Shown here: one piece after another, positions 12,262 to 47,010 of the stretch
Layout of the letters: each line of letters starts with the position of its first letter
Position numbering within the stretch: the stretch's first letter is position 1
Virus record (IMG/VR): IMGVR_UViG_3300008120_000061
Location: 1-64,000 of that record
Direction: 5' to 3' (one strand)
Source of the DNA: a virus
DNA: 64,000 bases
Notes under the pieces: model-generated
Databases searched by the model: none
The model's input: only the letters and a program-made list of their open reading frames with translations
Told to the model about the DNA's origin: nothing
Program-made: the position numbers and the translations under genes

Positions 12262-12290
12262 GGGGGAGGGCTGAGCCCTCCCCCTATTTA
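12262..12290 (+). terminator. GC-rich hairpin after the capsid gene (weak U tract; terminator or stabiliser)
   Basis: GGGGAGGGC-TGA-GCCCTCCCC followed by TATTTACT. Confidence 0.6.
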
Positions 12291-14526: not shown

Positions 14527-15749
14527 TGTCTAATATTAGATTATCTGTACTTTCATTTAATAAAAATCCCGCACTATTACGCGTTTATCAATCTTATATA
14601 GAAGCTGCAGATGAAACATCTAGAAATAGATTACAACAAAAACTAGAGCGAGTAATAGGTGATAAGTTATACGGTGCTAAAAAAGTAGCAGGAAATCCAA
14701 GGCTAATACCAGACTGGTATATTGATCAAAGTGACGCCGCTCTAGAAATTACTAATAAACTTGGGATATTTGAGAGAGATGCTAAATCAGGTATACTAGA
14801 AATTGAAGCCAAACTCCAAAGAAGACTTACAGAATCTAGAACCACTACTACTATCGGTTCAGGAGTACTAAATAATAGTATTATAAATGAGATACTACAA
14901 AATAAAGGTCAAGTAACTACTAACAACGTAGAGCAAAAGATATTTAGGCAACTACGAAGAATTAAGTCTGGTACTAATCTATTTAATTTCTTAGCTAAAA
15001 ATGCAGTTTCTACTATACACGAACCTGCATATCAAAAATCAAAAAACTTAACTATCCTGTCTAAAACGTCTGGTAGCTTATTAGCTTATCAAATATATTT
15101 TCCAAGAGCTAAATTTAAAGCTCCTATCTTCGGTAGTTCTATTGGCTCTGATGGCACTATTAGTTACTTTTTACAAACTAGTTTTGAAAAACAACTTGTA
15201 GCCGCAGCTTCCAAAGCTATGATGGCTGTTGATGTAGAAATTATACGCGAGCAACAAGATCTTGCTAAAACTATAAAACCTACAGATATAAGCTTTAGTA
15301 AGCCAGCTAAAGGTAGAAAAACTAAACCAACTGAAACTATTGACATGATATATTATTCTACTAATAGTATACCTATGTCTAGAGGTATTCCTAAAGCGTC
15401 TGTCAATCTTCGATTGCCCGCAGATATTGAAGATAAAGACTTTGACACTCCTAGAGACTCAGTACTTGATATAACTAGAGCAGTACAAGCTAAAGTAAGA
15501 AGTAGAATGAGACGTGGAGTAGGTAAACCTCGCCCTCCTAAGCTATATGAACGTACCGGAACTTTTAGAGGAAGTATTCGTGCTCATTTTGTTGAGCGTC
15601 AAAATACTGTAGACTATTCTTATATACCTTATTACGATAGACTAGAACGTTCCGGCTATCAGGTTAATAGACTAGTAGAAGATTCTATTAGATCGGTAGT
15701 TCAAGCCAAGTTTAAACAACAGGCAACAACTAGAAGAATAAATCTTTAA
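14526..15749 (+). CDS. Tail completion / neck protein (T5 p143-like)
   Basis: C-terminal LYERTGTFRGSI..YSYIPYY..RLVEDSIR; gene order. Confidence 0.6.
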   Translation: MSNIRLSVLSFNKNPALLRVYQSYIEAADETSRNRLQQKLERVIGDKLYGAKKVAGNPRLIPDWYIDQSDAALEITNKLGIFERDAKSGILEIEAKLQRRLTESRTTTTIGSGVLNNSIINEILQNKGQVTTNNVEQKIFRQLRRIKSGTNLFNFLAKNAVSTIHEPAYQKSKNLTILSKTSGSLLAYQIYFPRAKFKAPIFGSSIGSDGTISYFLQTSFEKQLVAAASKAMMAVDVEIIREQQDLAKTIKPTDISFSKPAKGRKTKPTETIDMIYYSTNSIPMSRGIPKASVNLRLPADIEDKDFDTPRDSVLDITRAVQAKVRSRMRRGVGKPRPPKLYERTGTFRGSIRAHFVERQNTVDYSYIPYYDRLERSGYQVNRLVEDSIRSVVQAKFKQQATTRRINL

Positions 15750-15760
15750 AAAATTAAAAT

Positions 15761-15789
15761 TTGCCAATTATAGTTCTGCGTGCTATACT
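15761..15789 (+). promoter_or_regulatory. Sigma70-type promoter with extended -10
   Basis: TTGCCA-17 nt-TATACT, with TGn before the -10. Confidence 0.75.
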
Positions 15790-15806
15790 TAAGAAAGAAT
15801 AGAGAG

Positions 15807-16256
15807 ATGTCCAATCGTTCCGATATAAATGACTTTATCGTAAGCCAATTACGAAATATAAACGGTAGAACGTCTCCGTACGATTCTACATACAATTTTA
15901 AGACGTCTTTACATGAAAATGTATACAGAGGAATTCGATTCTTAGATGAGATAAACGATTTCCCTTCTATATATGTATCTACAGGACGAGAAGTAAGAAA
16001 GTTTAATACTCAAGGAAATATAGAGGCTAGGGTAGAAACAACATTACGCTGTTACTTGTATGGAGATGATACAGTTAATCAAATTAACGATCTGATCCAA
16101 GACATAGAACACGTTATTTATAATTTAAAGTTTCAACCATCTCTACAAGTATTTGATGTTAGCATTACTACAGCTTTAACAGACTCTGGGTTGCTAATAC
16201 CATATGGAATGGCCGAGATATTTCTTAGTACTCGTTTTGAAATTTTTAAAATCTAA
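15807..16256 (+). CDS. Tail terminator (T5 p142-like)
   Basis: NVYRGIRFLDEINDFPSI..LIQDIEHVI..DSGLLIPYGMAEI; start moved to ATG 15807, downstream of the promoter. Confidence 0.8.
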   Translation: MSNRSDINDFIVSQLRNINGRTSPYDSTYNFKTSLHENVYRGIRFLDEINDFPSIYVSTGREVRKFNTQGNIEARVETTLRCYLYGDDTVNQINDLIQDIEHVIYNLKFQPSLQVFDVSITTALTDSGLLIPYGMAEIFLSTRFEIFKI

Positions 16257-16270
16257 AGGAGAAAGCTAAA

Positions 16271-17545
16271 ATGGCTTCATCACTAAACCTTCAAAGAAAC
16301 TCTGAAGTTTACATGTCTACCGTCGACCTAGCCGGTGGAGATACAGGCTCAGATATGACACCTACAAATACCTGGAGAATAGAAGTACTCGCCGGTTATG
16401 CAGCAAGTCAATCAGCGGCTACACAAGATATTACATCACTGGAAAGTGGTCTAACTCCTGACCGCGGTACCCAGCGCTTTAACACTGCAATCAATCCAAC
16501 TGAGTGGAGTTTCCAGACCTACTTACGCCCAACTGGAGTTACAAATACTAGCGGAGGCACAAACGTAGACCCTACAGGTAACTCACAGCCACTAGCAGAC
16601 TGGTTCTTATGGCAGGCACTTCTATCTAATACTGCATACTCAGCAGGAACAGGAGCTTCTTCAGTTCTGCAGTCTGTATGGCAGACTAATGGAAAATTTG
16701 CTCTAGTAGCTCGTGCAGCATCAGGTAATACTCGTGCCCACACTTCTAACATGGCTCGCGCAACAGAATATAATATGTACCTAAAAATGGATAACGTAGT
16801 ATATCAAGTTCAAAACGCTACTGTTAATGAAGCTTCTATTGATGCCGCCATTGACTCTATCGCTATGACCAGCTGGAGCGGTTTTGGTACTGATTTTATC
16901 GAACTAACAAGTACCGCACGTAACGACTTTATTGACGTTGTTGGTGGAGTTAAGAATGATGGAAGTTCTGTAACAGCAACTCCATCAGTTGACTCTAATA
17001 CACAAGCTTCTGCATATCACAGTTATGCAAGATATAACGTTGCTGGAACTACAACTACAAGCGCATTCATTCAGAACCGTTTAAGTGCTATTGAAGTAAC
17101 CCACACACCAGCAGGTCAAGCTTCAGATACTTACACATTCCCAGTAACTGGACTAGGATTTACATATTCTAACGCACTAACTTATCTAACTCCAGAAGAA
17201 CTAGCTGCTCTAAATACTCCAATCAGTCAGTTTACTGGATCTAGAACTATCACAGGTAACTTTACTGCTTACCTACGTTCTGGAGATGATGAAAGTGCTC
17301 AGTTCCTACGTAATATCTCTAACGATTCTAGAACAAGTATCGCACAAGCAAGTACTGCTAACCTAAAGATTGGTGGTTCTACAGCTCCGTTCGTTGCGGC
17401 TTACATGCCTGCTACTCAGTTCAACTTCCCAACTCACACTGTGGAAGATATCATTGGTATCTCTGTAGAATTCTTAGCTCAAGAACCTACAGCTAGTCGT
17501 GGTACTGGTAGCGAATTAACACTAGTTGTTTCTGCCGCATCTTAA
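16271..17545 (+). CDS. Major tail tube protein (T5 pb6-like, no obvious C-terminal Ig domain)
   Basis: LQRNSEVY, RFNTAINPTEWSFQTYLRP, FIQNRLS, TYLTPEEL, FTGSRTITGNFTAYL. Confidence 0.9.
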   Translation: MASSLNLQRNSEVYMSTVDLAGGDTGSDMTPTNTWRIEVLAGYAASQSAATQDITSLESGLTPDRGTQRFNTAINPTEWSFQTYLRPTGVTNTSGGTNVDPTGNSQPLADWFLWQALLSNTAYSAGTGASSVLQSVWQTNGKFALVARAASGNTRAHTSNMARATEYNMYLKMDNVVYQVQNATVNEASIDAAIDSIAMTSWSGFGTDFIELTSTARNDFIDVVGGVKNDGSSVTATPSVDSNTQASAYHSYARYNVAGTTTTSAFIQNRLSAIEVTHTPAGQASDTYTFPVTGLGFTYSNALTYLTPEELAALNTPISQFTGSRTITGNFTAYLRSGDDESAQFLRNISNDSRTSIAQASTANLKIGGSTAPFVAAYMPATQFNFPTHTVEDIIGISVEFLAQEPTASRGTGSELTLVVSAAS

Positions 17546-17552
17546 TAATTGA

Positions 17553-17667
17553 ATAAACTACGCTTGAGGGGGCGTAGTTTATAAAAATGCAGTTGGGTAG
17601 CTACCTCAGCAAGCTATTAGATCTCCCCTCACTAATAGTAAGTTGGATATGGTAGCTACCCTTTTTT
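17553..17667 (+). ncRNA. Putative structured cis RNA: two hairpins with complementary loops, ending in a U tract
   Basis: Stem 17553-63/17572-82 with loop TTGAGGGG; outer stem 17595-605/17651-61; inner stem 17614-20/17632-38 with loop ATCTCCCCTCA; T6 at 17662-67. Confidence 0.6.
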
Positions 17668-17689
17668 ATAATAGAAATGAGAGGAAAAT

Positions 17690-18121
17690 ATGAGTTTAAT
17701 TAAAAATTTAATGGTAACAGAAAAGGTTACCGAAGTAGAGTTTCCAGATATTGACGGATTTGTAGTTCATGTTAACTATGTTGGCCGTGACAAAATGATG
17801 AAAATTCGTAATAGCGCACTAGTATATAAGTTTAATAAGCGTACTCGCCAGCGTGAAGAAGAAGTAGATAATGATAAGTTCCTAGAAGCTTATACTGAAG
17901 CTACTATTAAAGGTTGGAAAGGTCTAACTGTAAAAGGACTAAGCCAGCTTATTCCAGTAGACACTTCTAAAATGGATGCTAGTAAAGAAATTCCTTACAC
18001 TCCAGAAGACGCTCTTGACCTAGTTAAAAACTCTACTATTTTTGATCAATTTATCACTGACACGCTAAATGATTTTGATAACTTTGAACAAACTAGAAAA
18101 GAAACTCAAGAAAAAAACTAA
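17690..18121 (+). CDS. Tail assembly chaperone (gpG-like)
   Basis: EVEFPDIDGF..IKGWKGL; between tube and tape measure; ends at a slippery site. Confidence 0.85.
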   Translation: MSLIKNLMVTEKVTEVEFPDIDGFVVHVNYVGRDKMMKIRNSALVYKFNKRTRQREEEVDNDKFLEAYTEATIKGWKGLTVKGLSQLIPVDTSKMDASKEIPYTPEDALDLVKNSTIFDQFITDTLNDFDNFEQTRKETQEKN

Positions 18122-18157
18122 AAGACTTCCTCCGCAATCAACTTCATGGCGGAGGGA
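18112..18157 (+). other. Programmed -1 frameshift signal
   Basis: A AAA AAC at 18112-18, 8-nt spacer, hairpin TTCCTCCGC/GCGGAGGGA; -1 frame is open into the next ORF. Confidence 0.85.
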
Positions 18158-18489
18158 TGTCAGCTGACCAATACTACGCTATGTGTGAACAAATGGGGTG
18201 GGAGCCAAGAGAAGATGAAATACCAAAAGATATTGGCTCTCTCCCATTTAATAGTCAACTAGCTGTTTTATTTTTAAACCTACTTCCAGATCGTTGGGAT
18301 ACTACTGGTGGTGGATGGTTAGGAAAAGATTTTGCACCCTTAGAAGCTTTTATGAACATACATGAGGCGCAAGATAGAAAAGAAATCCTTGATTTAATAC
18401 TAATAGCTCATAGCGTACTAGCTGAACACTATAATCAGCAAAAGAAAGCTAGAGATTCTGCAGGTAAGAACAAGGCAAGAGTGAGATAA
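18118..18489 (+). CDS. Tail assembly chaperone frameshift extension (gpT-like)
   Basis: -1 frame LKDFLRNQLHGGGMSADQYYAMCEQMGWEP..LPDRWD..WLGKD. Confidence 0.8.
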   Translation, partial: LKDFLRNQLHGGGMSADQYYAMCEQMGWEPREDEIPKDIGSLPFNSQLAVLFLNLLPDRWDTTGGGWLGKDFAPLEAFMNIHEAQDRKEILDLILIAHSVLAEHYNQQKKARDSAGKNKARVR

Positions 18490-18492
18490 GGT

Positions 18493-21400
18493 TTGGCTTT
18501 AATTAAGAATATAATTCAGACCCAGTTTACTAGTACTGGATCTGGCGCAGTAAATAAACAAGTAGAAACTTTAAATAAAAATCAAACCCGCCTAGCACAG
18601 AGTAGTGCTAGCGCGGGTCGCTCTTTTGCTGCGCAATCACAAGGTTTAGGTGGTTTAGTTGGTGCCTATGCTGGTGCTGCTGCAACTACATTTGCCCTAC
18701 AACAAGCCTTCTCAAAATTAGCTGCTGCTGCTCGTGCTGAACAAACTCTAGAAGGTCTTAAAAGCTTAGCCACTGCTAGCGGTGAGTCTAGTTCTATCTT
18801 GCTTAAAAATGTTCGTGAAATAACTAAAAACCAATTAACACTTGCAGAAGCCGCACAACAAATTAACCTTAGCTTAAGTGCTGGTTTTGACCAAAGACAA
18901 ATTGAAGGACTAGCTACTGTAGCTATAAAAGCGTCACGCGCGTTAGGACGTGATTTAACTGACGCTTATACTCGTGTTATTCGCGGTTCAGCTAAGTTGG
19001 AAACAGAACTCTTAGACGAACTTGGTATTTATACTAAAATTGGACCATCTACTCGTGCTTATGCTGCTGCCTTAAATAGATCAGCAGAATCATTAACAGA
19101 ATTTGAACGTCGTCAAGCATTTGTTAATAGCGTTATTGCAGAAGGAAATAGAAAATTCTCTTCTATAAATACTACTATACCAACTTCCGCAGAAAGGCTA
19201 GAAGCTTTTGGCGTTAAGATTGTTGATGTAGCTACGCAAATGGGTATTCTCTTAGCTAACTATCTAGCTCCATTGGCTGACTTCTTAACAAATAATTTTG
19301 CGGGTAGCTTAGCTGCAGTAGGTACACTGCTTGCTTTAATTTCTAAGACAGCCGTAGGCGCTTTAGGTTCGGCTATAGGTAAATTAGAAACTAAAATTGA
19401 ATCTTTTACTAGTAAAACTAGTGGTTGGCTAGCTAAAAATGGTGGGGACTGGCAAGGGTATTCAAAAAAAGCTCAGGAAGCTATGCAAAGCGTAAATACT
19501 CAAATGCGTGGATTAAACAAAGCAGAGCAAAGCCAACTTTCTGCCTTACGTGAAACTTCTAAACAACGCGCACTAACAAGTTCCGAGCTAAAATCTGCCA
19601 ATGACATTTTGAAAAAAAGAGAAGATAGTTTAACTACCCTGACAGCTACTCAGACAAAAGAATTAGCGGTTCTTACGGCTTCACGAGCGGCAGGCAAGCT
19701 ATCACAAGACCAAACTAAAGCTCTAGATACTACTATAAATAATTTAACTAAAAGACTCGAAATAAACCAGGCTATACTTGCTAGTACAACTGCTCAAACT
19801 AAACTTTTTGGAGCTGCCCAAGCTGCTACCGGGGCTAGAATAGCAGCAGTTACTGCTACAGTTGCTTCAGGATTTAGTACTTTAGTAGTAGGAACAGTAA
19901 GTGCTGGTAGAGCTTTACTTGGTCTAACATCAGGTTTTCTTGGGGTTGTGTCAATTGCATCTTTAGTTGGTAGTTCTATTGCCGGATTAATGGGTAAACA
20001 AGAAGCTTATAACGCCTTACTAAAAGAAGGGGCACTAGCTTTAGGAGCATTCTTTAATCCTGGGGCTGGAAATAGTACTCAGGAATCTTTTAATGCATTA
20101 GCTGCTGCTGCCCTAGAAGATATGTCTAAAGTAGACGCTACACTAAGAGACATAGATACTTTTAAGATTAAAGATAAAGTTTTTGGTATAAGCGTTGATG
20201 TAGAAAAAACAAAAGAAGACTTAGTACGCGAAGTTGGAGCTATTTTTGAAGAAGTAGCAAAAGACGGACAAAAGACTTTTACAGAGAGTTTTGCTTCTGG
20301 TAGTGCTGCTACAGGCGGATTATTAGGTTATATTTTTGGAGGTTCTATTATTAGAGGGATTGCCTCTTTTGTAACAGCTAGAGGATTAACAATGCTTGGC
20401 GGAGCGCTTGGTACTGCTTTTGGGGGTCCTATTGGTACTGCTGTTGGTGCGGCTATAGGTGCAGCAGCAGGTGCTGCTTTTGAGTACTATTTCTCAAAAA
20501 GCTTAGACGATTTAGATCCTCAGGCTTTAGAAGATGCACTAATTACTGTTGGTAGAAGGGTTTATAATGACCCTGAAGCATTTGCAGGTATAAATGAGAC
20601 ACTAGCACAAGCTCTATATAAAATAGAAGAACAATACGGAGCATTAGCAGAAGCTTCTTTTGCAGGTAGAGAATATTATAGAATTATGGTACAAGTGGCG
20701 GAAGCCATTGGAGACTCTTCTAACAACCTAGAAATATTAACTGATCTATCAAAAGCTTTAGGAATTTCTATTGTAGATTTAAAAAAGAATTTTACCGATC
20801 TAACAAGCGGCAATGGCAACATTCAACTTATACCTAAATTAGATATACCAGATATTAGCCTACCTGCGTTAACTATTACTATACAAGATGAAAAAGCTGT
20901 ATTAAGTAGACTAGCTACAATTAGTGATATTGCAAATGAGTTAGCGTCAAGCTATTTTATAACTCCTGAACAAACTAACTCAGTTTTAACGTTATCAAAT
21001 GCTATTGGTGATTTGGCTGCTATAACTCAAACAGCTAGTACAGACATATTACTAGCTAATAATAATTTACAATCTTTTCGTAACGCTGTTGATGATGGGT
21101 CTATAACCTTAGAGAAATTTGCGGAAAATGAAGCAGCTGTATCTAAGAGTTTAATTAGAGCCGGTGCCGCATTAGATGTTGCTAAAGATAAATTAGCCGA
21201 ATTAAAAGATCAAAGAGCTGCCGCTGAAGAACTTGGTATACCAACACAATTATTAGAAATACTTAATGAGGAAATTAGGTTACAGTCAAGTATAGTAGCA
21301 GAAATATCTAAAGGTATTGGTGCTACTCAAGAAAGACTTGGAATACTACTAACAGAGTCCCAGGCTCTTAGAGATCAGTTAAAGATTAAAGAGAACATAA

Positions 21401-24400
21401 CAACACTATTTGATGCAGAATTAAAAACTAAATTAGATCTTCTTGCTGTAGATCAGGCTAGTGGAGCTTTAGCTGCTACTTCTTTTGAAAAAGATTTGGC
21501 AAGAGCTGCTTTTTTACAAGATATATTAGAAAAAAATAAGGAGTCATATGACGCTAGACTTAAGTTCGAAACTGATGTAAACGAAGTACTAAAGGCCGCC
21601 GGTAAGGATCAATTAGGATTACAATCTGAAATATTCTCACTAGTTGGTAATACTGGACAAGCTCGTTTAGCTGAGATAGACGCAGCCTACGGGTTAAATG
21701 GTGCATTATCTAGCCTTAATACCCTTTCTTCAGATGCATCTGAAGAAGCTAATAACTACAATGACGCATTGAAAGTTGTTAAGGTAACTGCTCTAGAAAT
21801 ATATGAGGCACTACGTAAAGGCACTGAAGAATTTGATAAACAACTTAAGCAAGTAGAAAGAGATATTTCTGAATTTGTAGCTGAAGATAGAATAGTAAAA
21901 CTAAGATTAGAAGCTGAAACCCTAAACTTAAATTATGAAGCTGTACAAGCGCAATTAGATGCACAGATAGCTTCTCTACAGTCTCAAATAGATATAGTTG
22001 AGGCATTAGCAGATTTAGATAATTTTGCTACTGTAGACTCTATTGTGGCCGAGGTTAACGCTGCTCTAGCAAATACTAAAGTTCAAGTTGAGGTACCGAA
22101 AGAACTTCAAAATTTAAGCGCAGTAGAAGCAGCTAAAACTGTAACACAAAAGCAATATGAAATATTAGCTTTACAAATTGATGCAGAAAACAAGCGCTAC
22201 TTAAATGAACTTCAAAATATAGCTATTGAAAAAGATATATTAAAACAAGAATACGCTCTAGAAGTGTCTAGAAGAGAAGCCGAGAAACAATCTAGATTAG
22301 CAGAGATAGAAGTTCAAAGAAATAATTTAACAGCCTTAGCTAGTACCTATGTTAAAAGTCTAACACAGCAAGAAGGCATAAATCAAATTTTAGTAGAAGG
22401 CTTAGCTAGAGTATTTTCTGAAGGAGCTTCTAGAATAGCTCTTGCAGTGGGCGCTGCGGCTCCTCCTGGTATAGCTGTTCCTAAAATGGGGCTGGGTGAG
22501 GCCGCAATAGCAGAAAATATTACAGCAGCTGCAAAGGCTTATGCTCCAGCATTTGATAAATTAACATCATCTATTGAAGATTTTTATTCTAAAACTGCCT
22601 ATGCAGCTGCAGAGAATCATGCGACAGCATTAGATAATTTTGACGAGCAAGCAGATGCTGCTGCAGCTGCTCATGCAGCTAACCTAGAAGGTTTTAGAAA
22701 CGATGGTATAGCAATTGGTATTGCTGGTCGTCAAGCATTAAAAACTATTGCAGATGAAAATGCTAAACAAGCCGAAGACGATGCAAAAAAGCGTGCCGAA
22801 GCTTTAGAAGAAATGCAAAAGATTATAAATGAAACCGGAGAAAAGATAAAAGAACTCACTAAGCAATTAGCTCAGCAAATTTTAGATACTCTTGGAGGAG
22901 TTGTTACTTCTGTTATGCAGAAAAAAGTTGATCTTTTAGCTGCTCAAGAAACTATGATTTCAGATACATTAAGTCTTATATCTGCTAAAACAGAAGAGGC
23001 AAGTAATAAGTTACAACAAACTTTAGAAAAAGAAAACTCACTAAGAGAAGAGGTCGCCTCTAAGACTGAGGCTGTAAATAAATCTTATACTGATTTTATT
23101 GACGCTTTAGTAAGCAGTGACGGTAAAATACAAGAATCAGGTAAGGAATATGTTTCAAGACTATTAGAACAAAAAAATTCTATAATGGAATTGAATAAAG
23201 CAGGATCTGCTAGAATAGCTCAAGAAGGAGCTGCCAAAACTCTAGAAGAAATGAAAATAGATTTAGAGAAGCGTTTAGAAGAAGTAACTGCTAATCGCAT
23301 TAAAGCAGACGAAAAACTACAAAAGACACAAGAAACTTTATCAGTTTTGAGTGATCTACTTAATAGTAAATTTACTCAAATGACATCTACCATAACTCAA
23401 CTTTCTCAAGCTATAGGAGCTTTTAATTCTATGGGTGGAGTAGGTGGTGCTGCTGGGATCGGTTTTCAACCGATTGTAAATAAATTTGCTGACGCAGTTA
23501 AGCAGTTTAATAAAGCTGCCGAAACAGCGGGTACAGCCTCTAAACAAAGTACTGAAGCAAGTACCAATATTGCAGGCGCAGGTAAGAACATAGCAACAGC
23601 GTTTAATCAAAATGTTGTTAAAGCTATGGACCTATTTGGTGCGGCTTTAGATGGTTTTAATCTTGGATCAATGATAGGGCAGCTAACTGGTGATATGGGT
23701 ATGGGAAGTTCTATAGGCGGCGCTATTGGCGGCATAGTATCTGCTATACCAGCCTTTAGTAATGCAATAGCTGGAGCAATAACTGGTGCTCTTGGAAAAG
23801 GATTTTTTGCCACAGCATTAGGTGCGGCAATCCCAGTATTAGGTCCTATCATAGGCGCTTTACTAGGTGGGTTATTTAGTAAAAAACCTAGAGGACAAGC
23901 TCAGGGCACATTAACTTCTGAAGGCTTTGAAACTACTAGTATGTCAGGTAGAAAAATAGATGTTAAAGCTTTAGCTAGTATAGCTGAAGCGTCTCTTACT
24001 GGGGTAATATCTTCTTTAGCAGCTGCAGGCATATCGTTTTCTGACACTGTTAATACAAGCATTAGCTATTATAAAAAAGGAATTAACGGTGCAACCTTAG
24101 AATTTGCTAACGGTTTTAAAGCATCGTTTGAGGGTGGTACTGCCGAACAGGCTGGAAAATTCTTTGTAGATTCTTTCTTTCAGGGATTAAGGATTGGCAG
24201 CTTAACTATTGACGAATCTATGCCGGCAGCCGATAGAATCCAAGCTGCTATAGATAGATTTGCAACTCTAGCAGACGTAGCTGAAAAAACAGCTGAAAGA
24301 CTTGATAAAGCTATTCAATTTGCTTCTGAATTTGATACTTCATTAGCAGAACTAAGCGGTACTGGTTCTTCAGTTGCACAAATATTTAAAGCTATAAATA

Positions 24401-27400
24401 ATGCTGCATTAGCTAATGCAAATAATGTAGGTAGATACTATTCTGATTTCTTAGCAGACACTAAAGAAGTATTTGGTGAAGCTAGTTCTGAGTACGAAGA
24501 AGCATATAATTCTGTAGTAGATAATGCTTTAGCTCAAATAGGTTTGGCTAAGGACTTAGAAGGTAATATTATTTCTGTTGCAGAAGCAATGAAAGGTTTA
24601 GCTATTGCTAACATACAAGCTTTTAGCACTGTACTTGAAGAATTAGAAATACCTGATGTAGATACTATTATTACTCAAGCTATAAATGCTAAATTAACTA
24701 CTTTAGTAACTGACGTTGGGGATGCTTTATCTAGCAGTATAGAGAAATTAAAAGAACCAACATATGCTGCTGCATTTGAGCTTAGAGATATGCTGGAAGA
24801 AAGTGCTGCTAGAATATCCGACTTACAAGGTATCTATGACCAACTTAATAAGGAAATTGGAGAAGGCACAAATGTAAATGCTGATATAGTTACAGGCGCC
24901 GCAGATAATATTGCTAAAGCTACAGAATTAGCTGCCTTGCAAGTTGACGCCTACATAAATACTCTTGATAAATCTGGCCTAAAAGCTATCATTACTAATG
25001 AAGCATGGGGTAACGCGGCGGCACTAGCTGCCGCGGAAACTCGTTTAGCTACTATACTAGAGTATGAGCGTATCCAAGCTATAGTAAAATTTGTAGAGGT
25101 TAGCAGAAATTTTAGAAAGAAATTAGCTGAAATATCAGGCCAAATGGTAGACATTTCAAAGATACCTATTTCATTTACTGCCATAACTGATGTTATGAAA
25201 GCATTTGACCAACAAGTAAGTACTAGCTTAACTAATAGTTTTACAGGTTTTCTTAATAGTATAGGTAAGGGAGAAGACATTACAACTAACTTCGAAGATG
25301 CTATAACTCTACTAAATGATAATTTTATTAGTGGTGAATTAGATAGTATTGCGTATGCAAATGGTCTTGAAATGCTACAAGAAGTATCGGTTTCTGTGTT
25401 AGAAGAAATTAAATCTATGGTAGACGAATATGAGTCTCTATTAAATCAAATTGCAAACTCCTATACTGACTCAAAAAATACTGTTATATCAGCCATTCAA
25501 CAATTAGGTGAAGATCTTATATCTTTAACTCAAAACATAACAGACCAAACTTCAGAGATTTTAGGTATTTATGACGATACTCTAGCTAGCGTAGCGGAAT
25601 CAGGAAATGAATTATTTGATTTACGTGACACAGCTAAAGAAGCATTTTCTACTGCAGCTAAAGCTGTTGCAGAATTTGAAAAGAGTAATAAACTTAGTGG
25701 AAAATCTTCTGCAGCACTACGTGGAGAAATTGTAAGTGTACAGTCACAATTAGATCAGTTATTAGCTGGAGGATCTTTAGATTTTGCTGGATTTGCACAG
25801 TTTACAGAATTAAGCGCTAAGCAAAATGCCTTAAAGAAAGAACTTAAATCACTTGTCACTGTTGAAGCTGAATATGAAGCTTTACTAGCTACTAGAAGTA
25901 GTAGTCAAGAAGATTTAGCATTCGTAGAAGCTACTCTAGCTACGTTAAATGATGAACTAATAGATACTCGTGTAAAAGAATCAGATATAATTAAAAAAAC
26001 TAAAGATTCAACACAAACTTTTCTAGAATCACAACAGGATCTAAGAACAATAACAGAACTTCTTTCAGAGTCTAATTTTAATTTAAATCAGGTTAGAATT
26101 GATGAAGAGTCTGTGATAAATAGAATGAGAGCTGCGTTAAACGAGTTTAATAGAGATACTACATCTTTAACAGAAATACTAACTGTTGTAGGAGGCGTAG
26201 CTGGTGCTGCACTAAGAGATTCATTTATTGAGGCAGCTAGACAAAATGCTGAAATTATGTTTGCAAGTTTAGCTGATCCAATAAGAAATCAAGAAGTAGC
26301 CACAGCTGTACAAGGAGCTTCTGATGCTTTTACACAACTTGAAAATTTAATAGGTAATATAGCTTCTTATTTCCAACCAGCAAATGCTATATCTCAAAGT
26401 TTAATAACTGTTAGTAATGCTAGCATAGCGCTAACTGATAGATTTGAAGAATTTAGTGATGACTTAGTAAGATATTTAGATCAAGAAGGACTTTCTCAAT
26501 TTTATGGTCAAGGTGGAATATTCTCACAATTTAGGGATTCCCTACTTACTACTCTACAAACAGATGGATTTGACGTTCTAACTGCTTCTGGCGGGCCTAT
26601 GGAATCATTTAACCTAAACTTAATGACCATAGGTACTGCTATAAATACTCTAACACAATCTGGAAATTTCTTAAATGTAAGTATACAAGCGGTTGAAACT
26701 TCTTTTGGTAATTTAATTTCTGCTGTAGGTACAGACCTAGAAGGATTAACTAGTGCTTTTGTAGGCCTTTCAGTAGTTAATCAAACAATTGGAGATATAG
26801 AAACTGCTGCACTACAACTTATATTAGAAGATGTTGGACAAATTGGAATAGCTATGGATAGTCTCGGCAATTTAGATGTAAATTTAGATGCATTTACATC
26901 TTTAGACGAGCTGTACGGATCTATACTAGTAGTAGAATCAACATTAAATAATATAAATTTTGAAGTAGCTGCAACAAGTGCTGTTAATTCTATAACTAGT
27001 GCTATAGAAGTAGTTAATAGCAGTATACAGGAAATAAATATTGACCCTGCAACACAGAATATAATAGGACAAGTAAATTCTTTTGTTACTGCTATTAATA
27101 GTACTTTACAAGCAGTTAATATAAATGTAGATACTACAGGAATTGTTAATTCTGTAACTACTGCTCTAAGCACTCTTAATAGCACGTTACAAGCAGTTAA
27201 TATAAACGTGTCTGCTACCAGTGCTGTTAATTCTATAACTACTGCCATAAGTACTATTGATAGCACTTTACAAGCAGTTAACGTTCAAGTAGGCACTACA
27301 GGGTTTGTTAACTCTATAAACACTGCCATAAGTACTATTAATAGCACTTTACAAGCAGTTAATATTAGCACGGCTGCAACAAGTGCTGTTAATTCTGTAA

Positions 27401-30192
27401 CTACTGCCATAAGTACTATTGGTAGCACTTTACAAGCAGTTAATATAAACGTGGCTGCTGCCAGTGCTGTTAATTCTATAACTACTGCCATAAGTACTAT
27501 TGATAGCACTTTACAAGCAGTTAATATAAACGTGGCTGCTGCCAGTGCTGTTAATTCTATAACTACAGCTATAGGGGTGGTCAATAGTGCCATAGAAGAG
27601 TTAAATATTGATGCAGTATCAAGTTGGGTGTTAGGCCAGATAAGTACTTTTATTAGCGCTATCAACAGTGATCTACCTGATACTAATATTAGTGTTAGGG
27701 CTAATCAAATTATAGGGCAAATTGTTACTGTTATTAGTGCTTTAGACTCTGGCATATCTAATATAAATTTTGATGTAACACTCGGATCAGCTGTTCAAGA
27801 GATTATAAATATACAAACTACTATTAATAGCGCATTAAATGGTATAACTTTTGGTGTTAGTATAGCTAATATTAATTCTACAATAGCAAGTATACCAACA
27901 TCTATTAACACTCAATTAAATGGCGTAAATTTTACTGCTAGTGTAACTAGTCTTAATGCTAGAATAAGTAGTATGCAGACATCTATCAATACTCAATTAG
28001 ATGCAGCAACTTTTGCTACTAATATAGATAACTTAATATCTAGAATAACGGGTATAAGAACAGCTATTACTACTCAATTAGACGCTACAACTTTTTCTCC
28101 TAACGTACCTAACTTAGTATCTAGAATAAATCAGATTGGAGTTCTTACAAATACTGGACTAGACGCTGTCAACTTTACAACTAGTACAACTAACTTTGTT
28201 AACAGAATAAATGGAGTAGGGTCTGCCATAAATACCTCGTTAAACGCTTCAACTTTAACAAATATAAAAGAAACTTTTGATGCGCTATTAGCTGTATTCG
28301 ACACAGGAGCAAATACTTCTATATCAAACTTTAAGACATCTATTGATGCTTTTAAAGACTTAACCCTTCAAATAAATAGCGTGACTGGTTTAGCCGCTCA
28401 AATTAATGCTTTATCTAATCCTACTACAGGAGCTACTGCGACTCTTATTACTAGATTTAAAGATTTACAAACACAAATTCAAACGTTAACAGGTACTACT
28501 GGAGTAGAGGCTCTAAGAACTCAAATAACCAAGATAGCAACAGATTTAGCTACTGCATGGGGTAAGGTAAAATTAGAAGTTGATAAGTTAGATACTGATA
28601 TTAGTGTTACTGTGGCTAGTACTCTTTCTAGTACTGATTCAGCTACTCTAAAGAGAATTGCTGATAATTCTGGTAAGGCTAAAGTTCTAGATAAGTCAGG
28701 TTTAAAATATACAACAGTTGCGTTAGCTGAAGGGGGTCCAGTATCTGGCCCAGGTACTAGTACTAGTGATTCTATCCCTGCAAGACTATCTGACGGAGAA
28801 TATGTTATCAAGGCTTCTTCAGCTAAAATTATAGGTAAAGATATTCTATCTATGATAAACTCTGGAGCTAGTATGGAAGAAATTTTTTCTAAATTAGGTA
28901 GATACAACGATACAATGGTGGCACATATAACACCAGAAGAAGCTGAGATGCTAAAACGTGCTGGTGGTAGCGGTACTAGAAACCCTCGTACTGGTCTATA
29001 TGAATTTTTCAATCCTGAAGCAGGTGCTTTAGTATATGGTGGACTATTTGATGCAGAAGAAAAAGCTTACCTAAATACTGCATATGGCACAGATGCAAAT
29101 GCGGCTAATACTATGTATAAAGATGGTGCGCATTTCGGAGCTGTAGCTTCACTTGCTAACAGTAAGAACAGTTATCAACGTGGATTCTTCACAGTAAACC
29201 CTCTTGCAAAAGATTACGGTCTTAAGACTGAAGATCTGTTTGATAGTACTGGGTGGGCTACCGAAAGAAAAAGAATAAACGCAGTACATATGGGTTTAAA
29301 TGATATGAGAAATGCTAGAGAAAAGAATTTAATTGGTGAGTTAACTTCTGGATATGGTGGTAAAATTGAAAAGAAGAAGAAAAACTGGCTTAATGCAATA
29401 TTGGGAGCAATTGTCGGAGCTATTTTAGCAGTTGTTACCGGTGGTCTTAGTCTAGTTGCTGGAGCTGCTTTAGGCGGAGCCGCCGGCCTTGCACTAACTA
29501 ATAACAAGCTATCTGTAGGCGCTGTGGCGGACGGCGTAACTGCTGGATATAAGGATAGCAATAACTACAGTGTTGACGCAGACAGAGCTAATAAAGTACT
29601 TGCAGAAGGTAAGCTACTTAAACAATTTGATAGATCCAGTAATTTAAATCTTAGATCTCCTGCAGTGGGCAATAGTGCTCTAGGTTCTGGAGACGATAGT
29701 ACTAGCCAAGATTATTTTGCAAAGACAGTAGATAAACTGAATAGCATAGATCCTCTTTTCTTTGATTTTTATATGTTAGGGGATGCTAAACGTGCTCAAG
29801 CTGCTAAAACAATATATGGTAATATAAGTGCCTACGATAAAATAACTAGTGATAATCGCGCTTATGGTGGTCTAGTAACAAAATCTGCACAAAAAGGTAT
29901 GCTAGGTAAGAGAGACTCCGTCTCTGCAATGTTAGAGCCTGGAGAGTTTATACTTCGTAAACCTATAGTAGAAAAACTTGGTATAGATACCCTAAACAAA
30001 ATAAATGCTGGAAGCGGGGATTTTGGTGGGGATGTAAATGTAGAAGTTAATATTACTAATAATGGAACTCCTGTTAACGCTATTGCAACACCTGTAGTAA
30101 GACGTGAAAACGAAAAGATTATTGTTGATGTTATACTTGAAGATATTAGAACTAACGGACCTATTCGTCAACAAATTAGGAGTATAAGATAA
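18493..30192 (+). CDS. Tape measure protein, 3899 aa
   Basis: T5 pb2-like N-terminus (GLVGAYAG..ELLDELGI), long Ala-rich coiled coil, Gly-rich hydrophobic segments, C-terminal GGPVSGPGTSTSDSIPARLSDGEYV. Confidence 0.92.
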   Translation: MALIKNIIQTQFTSTGSGAVNKQVETLNKNQTRLAQSSASAGRSFAAQSQGLGGLVGAYAGAAATTFALQQAFSKLAAAARAEQTLEGLKSLATASGESSSILLKNVREITKNQLTLAEAAQQINLSLSAGFDQRQIEGLATVAIKASRALGRDLTDAYTRVIRGSAKLETELLDELGIYTKIGPSTRAYAAALNRSAESLTEFERRQAFVNSVIAEGNRKFSSINTTIPTSAERLEAFGVKIVDVATQMGILLANYLAPLADFLTNNFAGSLAAVGTLLALISKTAVGALGSAIGKLETKIESFTSKTSGWLAKNGGDWQGYSKKAQEAMQSVNTQMRGLNKAEQSQLSALRETSKQRALTSSELKSANDILKKREDSLTTLTATQTKELAVLTASRAAGKLSQDQTKALDTTINNLTKRLEINQAILASTTAQTKLFGAAQAATGARIAAVTATVASGFSTLVVGTVSAGRALLGLTSGFLGVVSIASLVGSSIAGLMGKQEAYNALLKEGALALGAFFNPGAGNSTQESFNALAAAALEDMSKVDATLRDIDTFKIKDKVFGISVDVEKTKEDLVREVGAIFEEVAKDGQKTFTESFASGSAATGGLLGYIFGGSIIRGIASFVTARGLTMLGGALGTAFGGPIGTAVGAAIGAAAGAAFEYYFSKSLDDLDPQALEDALITVGRRVYNDPEAFAGINETLAQALYKIEEQYGALAEASFAGREYYRIMVQVAEAIGDSSNNLEILTDLSKALGISIVDLKKNFTDLTSGNGNIQLIPKLDIPDISLPALTITIQDEKAVLSRLATISDIANELASSYFITPEQTNSVLTLSNAIGDLAAITQTASTDILLANNNLQSFRNAVDDGSITLEKFAENEAAVSKSLIRAGAALDVAKDKLAELKDQRAAAEELGIPTQLLEILNEEIRLQSSIVAEISKGIGATQERLGILLTESQALRDQLKIKENITTLFDAELKTKLDLLAVDQASGALAATSFEKDLARAAFLQDILEKNKESYDARLKFETDVNEVLKAAGKDQLGLQSEIFSLVGNTGQARLAEIDAAYGLNGALSSLNTLSSDASEEANNYNDALKVVKVTALEIYEALRKGTEEFDKQLKQVERDISEFVAEDRIVKLRLEAETLNLNYEAVQAQLDAQIASLQSQIDIVEALADLDNFATVDSIVAEVNAALANTKVQVEVPKELQNLSAVEAAKTVTQKQYEILALQIDAENKRYLNELQNIAIEKDILKQEYALEVSRREAEKQSRLAEIEVQRNNLTALASTYVKSLTQQEGINQILVEGLARVFSEGASRIALAVGAAAPPGIAVPKMGLGEAAIAENITAAAKAYAPAFDKLTSSIEDFYSKTAYAAAENHATALDNFDEQADAAAAAHAANLEGFRNDGIAIGIAGRQALKTIADENAKQAEDDAKKRAEALEEMQKIINETGEKIKELTKQLAQQILDTLGGVVTSVMQKKVDLLAAQETMISDTLSLISAKTEEASNKLQQTLEKENSLREEVASKTEAVNKSYTDFIDALVSSDGKIQESGKEYVSRLLEQKNSIMELNKAGSARIAQEGAAKTLEEMKIDLEKRLEEVTANRIKADEKLQKTQETLSVLSDLLNSKFTQMTSTITQLSQAIGAFNSMGGVGGAAGIGFQPIVNKFADAVKQFNKAAETAGTASKQSTEASTNIAGAGKNIATAFNQNVVKAMDLFGAALDGFNLGSMIGQLTGDMGMGSSIGGAIGGIVSAIPAFSNAIAGAITGALGKGFFATALGAAIPVLGPIIGALLGGLFSKKPRGQAQGTLTSEGFETTSMSGRKIDVKALASIAEASLTGVISSLAAAGISFSDTVNTSISYYKKGINGATLEFANGFKASFEGGTAEQAGKFFVDSFFQGLRIGSLTIDESMPAADRIQAAIDRFATLADVAEKTAERLDKAIQFASEFDTSLAELSGTGSSVAQIFKAINNAALANANNVGRYYSDFLADTKEVFGEASSEYEEAYNSVVDNALAQIGLAKDLEGNIISVAEAMKGLAIANIQAFSTVLEELEIPDVDTIITQAINAKLTTLVTDVGDALSSSIEKLKEPTYAAAFELRDMLEESAARISDLQGIYDQLNKEIGEGTNVNADIVTGAADNIAKATELAALQVDAYINTLDKSGLKAIITNEAWGNAAALAAAETRLATILEYERIQAIVKFVEVSRNFRKKLAEISGQMVDISKIPISFTAITDVMKAFDQQVSTSLTNSFTGFLNSIGKGEDITTNFEDAITLLNDNFISGELDSIAYANGLEMLQEVSVSVLEEIKSMVDEYESLLNQIANSYTDSKNTVISAIQQLGEDLISLTQNITDQTSEILGIYDDTLASVAESGNELFDLRDTAKEAFSTAAKAVAEFEKSNKLSGKSSAALRGEIVSVQSQLDQLLAGGSLDFAGFAQFTELSAKQNALKKELKSLVTVEAEYEALLATRSSSQEDLAFVEATLATLNDELIDTRVKESDIIKKTKDSTQTFLESQQDLRTITELLSESNFNLNQVRIDEESVINRMRAALNEFNRDTTSLTEILTVVGGVAGAALRDSFIEAARQNAEIMFASLADPIRNQEVATAVQGASDAFTQLENLIGNIASYFQPANAISQSLITVSNASIALTDRFEEFSDDLVRYLDQEGLSQFYGQGGIFSQFRDSLLTTLQTDGFDVLTASGGPMESFNLNLMTIGTAINTLTQSGNFLNVSIQAVETSFGNLISAVGTDLEGLTSAFVGLSVVNQTIGDIETAALQLILEDVGQIGIAMDSLGNLDVNLDAFTSLDELYGSILVVESTLNNINFEVAATSAVNSITSAIEVVNSSIQEINIDPATQNIIGQVNSFVTAINSTLQAVNINVDTTGIVNSVTTALSTLNSTLQAVNINVSATSAVNSITTAISTIDSTLQAVNVQVGTTGFVNSINTAISTINSTLQAVNISTAATSAVNSVTTAISTIGSTLQAVNINVAAASAVNSITTAISTIDSTLQAVNINVAAASAVNSITTAIGVVNSAIEELNIDAVSSWVLGQISTFISAINSDLPDTNISVRANQIIGQIVTVISALDSGISNINFDVTLGSAVQEIINIQTTINSALNGITFGVSIANINSTIASIPTSINTQLNGVNFTASVTSLNARISSMQTSINTQLDAATFATNIDNLISRITGIRTAITTQLDATTFSPNVPNLVSRINQIGVLTNTGLDAVNFTTSTTNFVNRINGVGSAINTSLNASTLTNIKETFDALLAVFDTGANTSISNFKTSIDAFKDLTLQINSVTGLAAQINALSNPTTGATATLITRFKDLQTQIQTLTGTTGVEALRTQITKIATDLATAWGKVKLEVDKLDTDISVTVASTLSSTDSATLKRIADNSGKAKVLDKSGLKYTTVALAEGGPVSGPGTSTSDSIPARLSDGEYVIKASSAKIIGKDILSMINSGASMEEIFSKLGRYNDTMVAHITPEEAEMLKRAGGSGTRNPRTGLYEFFNPEAGALVYGGLFDAEEKAYLNTAYGTDANAANTMYKDGAHFGAVASLANSKNSYQRGFFTVNPLAKDYGLKTEDLFDSTGWATERKRINAVHMGLNDMRNAREKNLIGELTSGYGGKIEKKKKNWLNAILGAIVGAILAVVTGGLSLVAGAALGGAAGLALTNNKLSVGAVADGVTAGYKDSNNYSVDADRANKVLAEGKLLKQFDRSSNLNLRSPAVGNSALGSGDDSTSQDYFAKTVDKLNSIDPLFFDFYMLGDAKRAQAAKTIYGNISAYDKITSDNRAYGGLVTKSAQKGMLGKRDSVSAMLEPGEFILRKPIVEKLGIDTLNKINAGSGDFGGDVNVEVNITNNGTPVNAIATPVVRRENEKIIVDVILEDIRTNGPIRQQIRSIR
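27106..27591 (+). repeat. About six tandem 81-nt (27-aa) repeats in the tape measure, with degenerate flanking copies
   Basis: TTACAAGCAGTTAA recurs at 27106, 27187, 27268, 27349, 27430, 27511; unit LQAVNINVAAASAVNSITTAISTIDST. Confidence 0.92.
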
Positions 30193-45160: not shown

Positions 45161-45194
45161 AAAAGAATCTATCCGCCCCCTCAAGAGCGGATAG
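45161..45194 (-). terminator. Hairpin overlapping the D13 stop codon, upstream of nrdJ (possible attenuator)
   Basis: CTATCCGC-TCTTGAGGGG-GCGGATAG then ATTCTTTT. Confidence 0.55.
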
Positions 45195-47010
45195 TGCTTA
45201 TATTATTTGTTTTCTCAATCTCTATCCGTGGTATTAGAGGGTGAGAGTAGTCATGTGATATTAAAAACACATTTAAGTCTTTTTCTTCTTGTAGCACCTC
45301 GAAAAGACGTTCTTTACCAGTTTCGTCTAGTACGCCTGTTATTTCGTCTAGAAATAGTAGGTTTATACTTTTTCCACCTATTTTTGAAAGTGTACCTCTA
45401 ACAGCTAACAATACAGAAGTTTGTACTCTAGAAAATTCTCCGCCTGAAAGAGACTCTATACTAACTTCTTCACCGTTATTAATTACTACAATGTTTAACT
45501 TATCACCTGTTAGTCTAAATAGGACTTGAAACTGTCCATCGCTTAGAAGCGCTAGATAATAATTAATACTCTCTTCAAGTTGTTTAGCCACATTTTCAAG
45601 TTTGTAGGCAACTATTCCAGAAGTAGAGAAAGCTTTTCTTAATATAGTTAAGTTACTTATCTCTTCTTGAATAATAACTATATCATTTTTTATTAGCTCT
45701 TGTCTAGCTTTAAAATCTCTAATTTGCTCTTTTAGGGCATCTATCTTAGCATTTCTGATTTTTACGCTATCGTTGTAAGTTATAGCTTCGTCTCTAGTTT
45801 TCTTTTGAGATTCGTATTTATTTTTTAACTCTCTTAACTTATTTGATATATTATTAAAATCTGGATATTCTTTAGGTATGCTAATATCAATCAACTGAGA
45901 TAGCTGAGTGAATCTATCTATAGCCTTTTGATTATCGTCATAAGCTTTTTTCTCTGCCTTATTCTTAGTTACTTTAGAGTTTAGTCTTTCAATTACTTTA
46001 TTTCTAGCAATCATGGACGTATCTAAGTCAGCTATTTCAGCAGCTAGTGCAGCGCTTAACTGAGTAGCCTTAGAGTTATCAATTGCTTGTTTACACGCGT
46101 AGCAATGGTCAGACGTATCTAAAGCTTTAATATCCTTTACAGCTTTGGCTTTTTGCGATTCTTCTTTATATACTAAGCTTTTTTCTTCTTCTAAAACTTT
46201 TACAATCTCAGTATCTAGCTCTGTATAAGTCATACCAATATCAAACTTTAAAACTTGTTGTTCTTGTATATACAGATTATTTTTATCAATTTTAGTGCAT
46301 ATAGACTTTTGTTCATTAATTTCGGATTGTAACTTATCTATTTCAGGTAATATTGATTCATCTAAGTTTGGAACTTCAATCAACTCAGCTCTTTCGGGCA
46401 ATTGATTCTGAGATAGGAACTGTTGAACGGTCTTAAGTTCGCCATTCTTACCAGCTAGTTCTTTTTCTTTAGCGCTGTTAAGAGTTTTTAGATTATCACC
46501 AATATCTAAGTACTTAGATAGATTAAATAGATTAACTAAGAATTTTTTTCTATTCGTATCCGTAGCTTTTAGAAATTCTAATAAATCAGTGCTACTTTGA
46601 TATGTTAGTTGACTGAACGTTTCAAAATCTCTACCAATCGAATTAGATAGTTCTTTGTATGTATCTAAGACTTTATGCTCACTAACATCTCCCCCATTTT
46701 TTATAATAGATACTTTAGTAGATGCACCCTGTCTTTTAGAAGTCAATTCGTATTCGTCACTATCAATACTAAATACAAGCTTAGCTTCCCAGGTCTTTGC
46801 ATTATTGTATTTATTCAATATATCAGACTTCTTTAAACCTTTTACATTTTTATTGTACAGTAGTTCTTGAATTATTAATGCTAGAGAGCTTTTACCGCTG
46901 CCGTTAGGAGCGGCTAATTGTGTTATTTTATTTTGATTTAGTATTAGTTTATTATTAGGACCATAACTAAACATATTACTAAATTCTAGTGTCTTTAATA
47001 CTACGCCCAT
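45181..47010 (-). CDS. SbcC/Rad50-like recombination ATPase (T5 D13-like)
   Basis: APNGSGKS, zinc hook CYAC, LSGGE, LLFLDE, ISH. Confidence 0.92.
   Translation of the reverse strand: MGVVLKTLEFSNMFSYGPNNKLILNQNKITQLAAPNGSGKSSLALIIQELLYNKNVKGLKKSDILNKYNNAKTWEAKLVFSIDSDEYELTSKRQGASTKVSIIKNGGDVSEHKVLDTYKELSNSIGRDFETFSQLTYQSSTDLLEFLKATDTNRKKFLVNLFNLSKYLDIGDNLKTLNSAKEKELAGKNGELKTVQQFLSQNQLPERAELIEVPNLDESILPEIDKLQSEINEQKSICTKIDKNNLYIQEQQVLKFDIGMTYTELDTEIVKVLEEEKSLVYKEESQKAKAVKDIKALDTSDHCYACKQAIDNSKATQLSAALAAEIADLDTSMIARNKVIERLNSKVTKNKAEKKAYDDNQKAIDRFTQLSQLIDISIPKEYPDFNNISNKLRELKNKYESQKKTRDEAITYNDSVKIRNAKIDALKEQIRDFKARQELIKNDIVIIQEEISNLTILRKAFSTSGIVAYKLENVAKQLEESINYYLALLSDGQFQVLFRLTGDKLNIVVINNGEEVSIESLSGGEFSRVQTSVLLAVRGTLSKIGGKSINLLFLDEITGVLDETGKERLFEVLQEEKDLNVFLISHDYSHPLIPRIEIEKTNNISTIRS

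Follow-up and report, generated by a model that had tools for sequence, protein, structure and literature searches.

A conserved two-hairpin RNA with complementary loops between the tail tube and tail assembly chaperone genes of uncultured T5-like phages

Long-tailed phages need hundreds of tail tube subunits and few molecules of the tail assembly chaperone and tape measure proteins, which are encoded by adjacent genes. The boundary between these genes was examined here in the first 64,000 nucleotides of IMG/VR virus record IMGVR_UViG_3300008120_000061 (the window, which is most of a 75.9-kb viral contig). The late genes of the window lie on the + strand in the order tail terminator, tube, two chaperone open reading frames (ORFs) and tape measure, and the tube-chaperone gap of 145 nt is the widest intergenic gap of the tail-gene cluster. 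The tape measure, at 3899 aa, makes the imbalance between tube and tape measure extreme here, and the RNA element described below sits exactly at that boundary. It consists of two hairpins, H1 and H2, that display complementary loops, L1 and L2. A first-pass annotation of the same DNA had placed in this gap an 11-bp hairpin displaying TGAGGGG at 17565-71, and a second long hairpin, followed by U6, displaying the exact complement CCCCTCA at 17625-31. These coordinates were confirmed (Table 1).

Folding of positions 17540-17700 with RNAfold returned exactly the H1 and H2 helices, with an energy of -50.3 kcal/mol (z = -5.2), and none of 200 shuffles folded as well. H2 is a three-part hairpin (17595-17661) with an outer stem P2a of 11 bp, a middle stem P2b of 5 bp and an apical stem P2c of 8 bp, and with an AA/AA internal loop. 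The L1:L2 duplex of the window (UGAGGGG/CCCCUCA) has 7 bp plus a terminal G.U pair and a calculated energy of -13.6 kcal/mol. By arithmetic estimate, the chance of finding 7 complementary bases between an 8-nt and an 11-nt loop is ~6e-4, and the + strand of the 64-kb window holds only 2 copies of GAGGGG and only 4 of CCCCTC. Typical dimensions in the family are ~9 bp for H1, ~15 nt for the linker and ~24 bp over 67 nt for H2. Measured in 92 variants, H1 starts at a median of 5 nt from the tube stop codon (range -3 to 14), and this closeness puts it within the footprint of a terminating ribosome. The dimensions, together with the bulge conserved on the 3' side of H2, would let H1 pack beside H2 and make contact with its loop.

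In order to follow the element beyond the window, we used protein-guided IMG/VR searches, which gave ~340 relatives of the tube gene; ~200 loci were retrieved. The same architecture was recognised by eye and was obtained for all 27 distinct relative sequences that were folded independently, although their stem sequences differ. A covariance model (R1) built only from close relatives of the window matched 85/89 and 72/84 loci (157 in total, with tube identities of 52-96%), always directly 3' of the tube gene. Those that it missed are truncated contigs, filter losses that carry the element by pattern, or members of a paralogue clade (L040-type), and the arrangement recurs in every non-truncated orthologous locus examined. 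The lack of the element in the L040 clade is uninformative because its tube-like gene is a paralogue, one contig having both gene types. The model found one copy in the whole 75.9-kb genome and one in a complete 117-kb relative.

The stems vary in a way that preserves pairing. All 35 stem pairs change on both sides in the model-derived alignment of 54 distinct sequences (11/11 for H1 and 11/11 for P2a). Standard pairs occupy 94% of the cells vs 33-47% when the partner is slid by 1-3 columns, P2a is 99.8% paired, and the covariation score is 0.77 vs 0.22 in shuffles. This alignment is fitted to the structure; the single-sequence folds agree with it, and so does RNAalifold, which recovered P2a from a MAFFT alignment made blind to structure, 10/11 pairs being compensated. 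In the same close-relative loci the model scores 105-147 bits on the + strand vs 16-27 bits on the minus strand. The low minus-strand scores and the abundant G.U pairs on the + strand indicate that the folded molecule is the + strand mRNA. These comparisons firmly support a new, conserved and strand-specific structured RNA of ~120 nt at the tube/chaperone boundary of an uncultured T5-like phage clade.

The first-pass annotation had not recognised the element as a known RNA family and had named covariation in related phages as a check. Both points stood, since every stem covaries and searches of Rfam 15 returned no family. For window positions 17000-18300 at E<=10, only miRNA and snoRNA noise was returned (21 bits vs a gathering score of 70), and ten diverse members of the element gave no match at E<=0.1. 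Our literature searches found no description of it. In true T5-like phages (of Vibrio, Serratia and Escherichia) the next gene abuts the tube gene and the model has no match.

The loops behave differently from the stems. Their cores, GAGGGG in L1 and CCCCTC in L2, never change in 90 distinct elements, while the stems are almost free to vary. The first-pass annotation had made its proposal depend on conservation of the loop complementarity, and both cores proved invariant in ~90 variants, so that the 6-nt core offers at least 6 contiguous Watson-Crick bases between the loops, as expected of a kissing loop, in all variants. Because MAFFT misregistered loop 2 in the L1-L2 segment, the bases flanking the cores were counted by a script anchored on the invariant cores. 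The first flank pair, between the 3' side of L1 and the 5' side of L2, is paired in 78/90 elements (G:C 51, G.U 13, A:U 14), a value that none of 2000 shuffles reached (mean 70.3). The second, which occurs as A:U, C:G, U:A and G:C, is paired in 66/90, again reached by 0/2000 shuffles (mean 36.6). When independent pairs on the tube-protein tree were considered, compatible vs opposite changes numbered 4.5 vs 0 and 4.8 vs 0.5 (p ~0.06 and 0.12), and after this correction for phylogeny the flank covariation is suggestive only. Since the top of the H1 stem is made of these same flank bases, the 5' side of loop 2 repeats the sequence found at the top of the H1 5' arm. Two pairings that exclude each other are thus available, and in some clades the contiguous complementarity reaches 10-11 bases. 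Taken as a whole, pairing of the two loops in a kissing complex appears well but not conclusively supported.

Table 1 Features of the RNA element and of the surrounding tail genes in the window. Positions are those of the window. H1 and H2 denote the two hairpins; P2a, P2b and P2c denote the helices of H2.
Feature	Position	Strand	Remarks
Tail terminator gene	15780-16256	+	Late gene
Tail tube (major tail protein) gene	16271..17545	+	ORF; PHROG phrog_3575 major tail protein, E 2e-47
H1 5' arm ATAAACTACGC	17553-17563	+	Pairs with 17572-17582, 11 bp; starts 7 nt past the tube stop
Loop 1 (L1) TTGAGGGG	17564-17571	+	TGAGGGG at 17565-71; core GAGGGG at 17566-71, resembles a Shine-Dalgarno sequence
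H1 3' arm GCGTAGTTTAT	17572-17582	+	First two bases can alternatively pair with the 5' side of loop 2
A/U-rich linker	17583..17594	+	12 nt (family median 15)
P2a 5' arm GGGTAGCTACC (H2 outer stem)	17595-17605	+	Pairs with 17651-17661
P2b 5' arm TCAGC (H2 middle stem)	17606-17610	+	Followed by internal-loop AA, 17611-12
P2c 5' arm GCTATTAG (H2 apical stem)	17613-17620	+	Pairs with 17632-39
Loop 2 (L2) ATCTCCCCTCA	17621-17631	+	CCCCTCA at 17625-31; core CCCCTC at 17625-30
P2c 3' arm CTAATAGT	17632-17639	+	Followed by AA, 17640-41
P2b 3' arm GTTGG and 4-nt bulge ATAT	17642..17650	+	Arm 17642-46, bulge 17647-50; 3'-side bulge throughout the family
P2a 3' arm GGTAGCTACCC	17651-17661	+	
U6 (T6) tract	17662-17667	+	Directly 3' of P2a; intrinsic-terminator feature
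Chaperone ribosome-binding region TGAGAGGA	17678-17685	+	4 nt before the ATG; GAGGGG in most other clades
Tail assembly chaperone gene, first ORF	17690..18121	+	phrog_313, E 1e-14; ATG at 17690
Second tail assembly chaperone ORF	18157..18489	+	phrog_3914, E 1e-10
Tape measure gene	18493..30192	+	ORF, 3899 aa; downstream gene with dosage putatively set by the RNA

In most clades the L1 core recurs at the chaperone start. The usual Shine-Dalgarno (SD) sequences of the phage are GGAG or AGGAG, while the chaperone gene has GAGGGG in most clades, which is identical to the L1 core and an exact complement of loop 2. In one complete relative, the chaperone gene is the only one among ~155 gene starts with an SD of this type. 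The first-pass annotation had also noted that L2 can pair with the window's ribosome-binding region TGAGAGGA with one mismatch; this pairing has -8.2 kcal/mol, and it is stronger in relatives, most of which have the exact GAGGGG. At least 5 contiguous bases are complementary between SD and L2 in 76/95 variants, with energies of -10 to -15 kcal/mol. The SD also faces a competitor for L2, as L1 carries the same GAGGGG and pairs with L2 more strongly than the SD does. In the minimum-energy fold L1 closes to a GAGG tetraloop in 67/92 variants, and the chaperone ribosome-binding site lies in unstructured A-rich RNA.

H2 also has the features of an intrinsic terminator, namely a G+C-rich stem (the 11-bp P2a with a GGG/CCC base) and a U-tract (the U6), and 83/95 variants have at least 5 U in the 8 nt after H2. 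In siphophages, clusters of late genes are bounded by stem-loop terminators such as those annotated in SPP1 (PMC6316719). The element resembles leaky rho-independent terminators and 3' stabilising hairpins of phages in its position directly after a highly expressed structural gene and in its G+C-rich stem base and U-tract, and it resembles phage late-gene terminators in its presumed role, which is differential expression within one late operon. Unlike simple terminators, its hairpin has 67 nt, three helices and a conserved 11-nt loop, and is joined by a constant second hairpin with a complementary loop; moreover, the U-tract is dispensable in some clades and the loop sequences are invariant, which is not required of terminators. 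The 12 variants in which the U-tract is weak or absent all retain the complementarity between SD and L2, so that every variant has at least one of the two features; as chance alone would give ~2.4 variants lacking both, this pattern is only suggestive. Near-identical sequence is present in six riverine metatranscriptome libraries. One contig from riverine RNA libraries (X15) bridges 17419-18335, those of three other runs stop at differing places within or before the element, and no RNA-library contig covers the tape-measure gene. As assembled contigs cannot show transcript ends or levels, and as DNA carry-over is possible, we draw no conclusion on termination from them.

Based on these features, we propose with moderate confidence that the ~120-nt RNA acts in cis, from its place at the tube cistron's 3' end, to lower the expression of chaperone and tape measure relative to tube. 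The proposal has three steps, all inferred and given in falling order of confidence. First, the loops would kiss, with 7-8 bp in the window and up to 10-11 bp in some clades through opening of the top of H1, giving a compact fold. Second, H2, with its G+C-rich base and U6, would serve both as a leaky intrinsic terminator and as a protector of the 3' end, so that most transcripts would end after the tube gene. Third, on read-through transcripts the C-rich L2 would pair with the G-rich chaperone SD and damp its translation, while L1, as a copy of the SD, would compete for L2 (as an anti-anti-SD). In the clade of the window the third step would be weak because of the one SD mismatch, and most of the effect is probably due to the strong U6 terminator.

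Several observations weigh against this proposal, and they concern each of its steps. As for the kissing helix, the loop core is invariant and its pairing is thus without direct covariation, the flank covariation rests on few independent events, and the covarying flank bases belong also to the H1 stem. The flank on the other side is U:A in 76/90 elements, with an A/G or A/A mismatch in 12/90. Full invariance of the loops also exceeds what a loop-loop helix needs and may point to another partner, for instance the ribosome, a protein or an RNase; the invariance would be best explained either by a chain of constraints linking rRNA, SD, loop 2 and loop 1, or by an additional protein or ribosome partner. 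As for termination, the U-tract is weak or absent in 12/95 variants (e.g. L106 and L033), and H2 is atypical in having 44 nt, folded as P2b and P2c, between the arms of P2a. Compact intrinsic terminators typically have a loop of 3-8 nt, and a consensus terminator scan that required such a loop did not call H2. As for the SD, that of the window clade is GAGAGG, of which 6/7 bases pair with L2 around a central A.C mismatch (-8.2 kcal/mol, as above), and three variants (L015, L017 and L080) have an AAAGG SD with no complementarity to L2, from which it follows that SD masking cannot be universal.

A more elaborate version, which we regard as doubtful, would make the element a three-way switch that is actuated by the ribosome and that links, at a distance, translation of the chaperone and tape measure to that of the tube protein. 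With H1 closed, L1 would be partly buried and L2 free to mask the GAGGGG SD of the chaperone gene. H1 would then be unzipped by a ribosome terminating 1-14 nt before it, at the tube stop codon, and the freed GAGGGG with the top of the 3' arm would capture L2 in a helix of 9-11 bp, unmasking the chaperone SD for one round of initiation. Such a four-way constraint, tying together rRNA, SD and both loops, would account for the absence of any change in the loop bases. Switches built from SD, anti-SD and anti-anti-SD segments, and long-range translational coupling, are known from the tac/ucb/fbi elements of hok mRNA and from the Min Jou interaction between the coat and replicase genes of MS2. The element is similar to these systems in having three mutually exclusive complementary segments, and in that upstream translation could change the pairing because H1 is within the ribosome footprint at the tube stop. 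It differs in that its partners are shown in hairpin loops rather than in linear segments.

The alternative that survives best, although we consider it unlikely, is that the element is a terminator, a stabiliser of the mRNA 3' end or a processing site without any translational role. The invariant loops would then be recognition sites for a protein or nuclease (RNase III acting on the irregular ~24-bp helix, or a phage RNA-binding protein), and the likeness of the chaperone SD to L1 would be incidental. Such a role would suit an element that directly follows the most abundantly needed tail gene and in which a U-tract comes after the G+C-rich base of P2a. That every loop base is invariant suits recognition by a protein better than simple pairing, and the SD complementarity is imperfect in the window clade and missing in the three AAAGG variants. 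RNase III processing hairpins of the T7 type, such as R1.1, lie between phage genes. H2 resembles them as an irregular intergenic helix of ~24 bp between late genes, with its AA/AA internal loop and its conserved asymmetric bulge on the 3' side; the geometry is compatible with cleavage, which is putative. Unlike those hairpins, the element carries a U-tract and conserved complementary loops. A purely terminating or processing role leaves unexplained the exact complementarity of two conserved loops, the flank covariation of the loop-loop helix and the presence of a GAGGGG SD at the chaperone gene alone, and it has to accommodate a U-tract that is degenerate in 12 variants.

The GAGGGG of L1 could instead handle ribosomes, which seems to us quite improbable. 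Here L1 would mimic an SD and capture 30S subunits that are released at the tube stop or are free in solution, so providing the chaperone gene with a standby or re-initiation site, and L2 would gate this capture as an anti-SD mimic. With the canonical anti-SD, L1 forms a duplex of -10.7 kcal/mol vs -8.7 for the tube SD and -6.0 for the chaperone SD, so that it beats the nearby real SDs; the anti-SD used here is the canonical motif and not the host's own sequence. The short distance of H1 from the stop, with its median of 5 nt, means that a terminating ribosome must open H1, and folding of H2 would bring H1 near the chaperone start. Yet no start codon follows L1 at SD spacing, a standby site would be unneeded for a ribosome-binding site in unstructured A-rich RNA, no precedent is known in such a gene context, and the flank covariation points to pairing of L1 with L2 and not with rRNA.

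Action in trans is an idea to which we give very little credence. The abundant terminated tube transcript, or a processed ~120-nt fragment of its 3' untranslated region, would pair through its C-rich loop with the GAGGGG ribosome-binding site of chaperone mRNAs on other molecules, and would thereby tie chaperone and tape-measure output to the level of tube mRNA. Repression through base pairing of a C-rich loop with an SD region is known from RNAIII of S. aureus (PMC2837412) and from the mycobacterial 6C small RNA (PMC6486639), and the logic here would be alike, since the element has a CCCCUC apical loop in a terminator-type hairpin that is complementary to a G-rich SD. Unlike RNAIII and 6C, which act in trans on many targets, the element has its target ~50 nt downstream in cis and a built-in decoy in loop 1. 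That GAGGGG SD is the single target in each genome, loop 2 would be occupied by L1 of the same molecule, and nothing observed points to a separate small RNA. Finally, a DNA-level element (operator, promoter, origin or nick site) or a chance palindrome is highly improbable and such readings are essentially excluded by the comparisons, for although the window has two copies of the perfect palindrome GGTAGCTACC (at 17596 and 17651) and a promoter-like TGGATA-17-TATAAT (17644-17672), both the palindrome and the -10 box are limited to the subclade of the window, the stems of other clades are unrelated and non-palindromic and still pair, and the G.U pairs and the asymmetry of model scores indicate a + strand RNA.

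Other candidates within and around the element were tried and rejected. A conserved promoter in the 3' half of H2 (TTGGAT/TTGAAA as -35, TATAAT after the U-tract) was dismissed because its -10 box is confined to the window subclade and the supposed -35 bases covary as P2b. The -10 box of the sigma-70-like TGGATA-17-TATAAT occurs only in the closest relatives of the window, where the pair of boxes could be a weak promoter for the chaperone genes. A small leader ORF starting at ATG 17587 was rejected, since this start codon is not conserved and no SD precedes it at a suitable distance. A riboswitch of the two-hairpin guanidine-II type or of the cobalamin type was rejected too, as there is no Rfam riboswitch match, the loops are GAGGGG/CCCCUC and not ACGR, and there is no multi-helix junction. 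The element does share with the cobalamin riboswitch, whose kissing loop joins L5 of the aptamer to L13 of an expression platform holding the ribosome-binding site, an intramolecular loop-loop helix between an upstream and a regulatory hairpin, the latter adjoining a ribosome-binding site or terminator. It differs in having no ligand-binding junction, in lying between cistrons of a tail operon and not in a 5' leader, and in that its SD is outside the hairpin and mimicked by an upstream loop.

We also considered whether hairpins with a GAGGGG loop are a recurrent motif. The only other exact TTGAGGGG in the window is at 45194-45169 on the - strand, and was judged a coincidence. It is part of a hairpin (45169-45194) with arms CTATCCGC/GCGGATAG, whose loop TCTTGAGGGG contains the TGA stop of ORF 45181..47010(-) and which is followed by U-rich ATTCTTTTAT. 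Relatives of 85% identity have CTCTTGAGAGAG at this site, with an 11-bp stem and a UGAG loop, and this longer stem and different loop mark the hairpin as an ordinary terminator whose likeness to L1 is coincidental. The complete relative that was surveyed for SD types (G001) had no other hairpins with a GAGGGG loop. Elsewhere in the window, a perfect 10-bp G/C-rich hairpin, GGGGGAGGGC-TGA-GCCCTCCCCC, lies at 12262-12284 in the 76-nt gap after an 867-aa protease-capsid ORF. Its arms include GAGGG and CCCTC, and it is probably a terminator after the capsid gene.

Some observations concern the genes on either side and the phage that carries them. The tube protein of the window is ~30% identical to those of Demerecviridae (cultured T5-like phages), and no cultured phage matched the window at the DNA level, apart from a 65-nt stretch. 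Two tube-like genes are present on the 33.8-kb contig IMGVR_UViG_3300046806_000035 (L144, L146/L113). An L040-type copy at ~1.8-5.6 kb has the next gene directly after it and no element, and an orthologue of the window tube gene at ~28.7-32.9 kb is followed by the RNA element; either the genome has two tube paralogues or the contig was assembled as a chimera. The two chaperone ORFs (17690-18489) lie 35 nt apart, and the second is preceded by a GGAGG of its own at 18151, a layout that differs from the usual overlapping pair joined by a -1 frameshift. The tape measure is ~3x the length of T5 pb2, and its size implies a very long tail and an unusually high ratio of tube to tape measure, which would make an upstream attenuator more relevant. 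DNA near-identical to window positions 15700-19200 was found in public metagenome runs of several studies, some from lakes and other fresh waters and some bearing the label 'fungus metagenome'. The occurrence in these public runs and in the riverine RNA libraries indicates that the phage is widespread in fresh water. The wider clade includes many IMG/VR contigs from other sources.

The element appears to unite a terminator, a kissing loop and a pair of SD mimic and anti-SD in ~120 nt, and it is present neither in Rfam nor in cultured T5-like phages. It is a clean marker for an uncultured clade of freshwater and marine phages, and may be of use in synthetic operons as a compact part with which to set expression ratios. 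If the proposed function is true, the boundary between tube and chaperone genes in this clade would be a new and experimentally tractable case of RNA-based control of stoichiometry.

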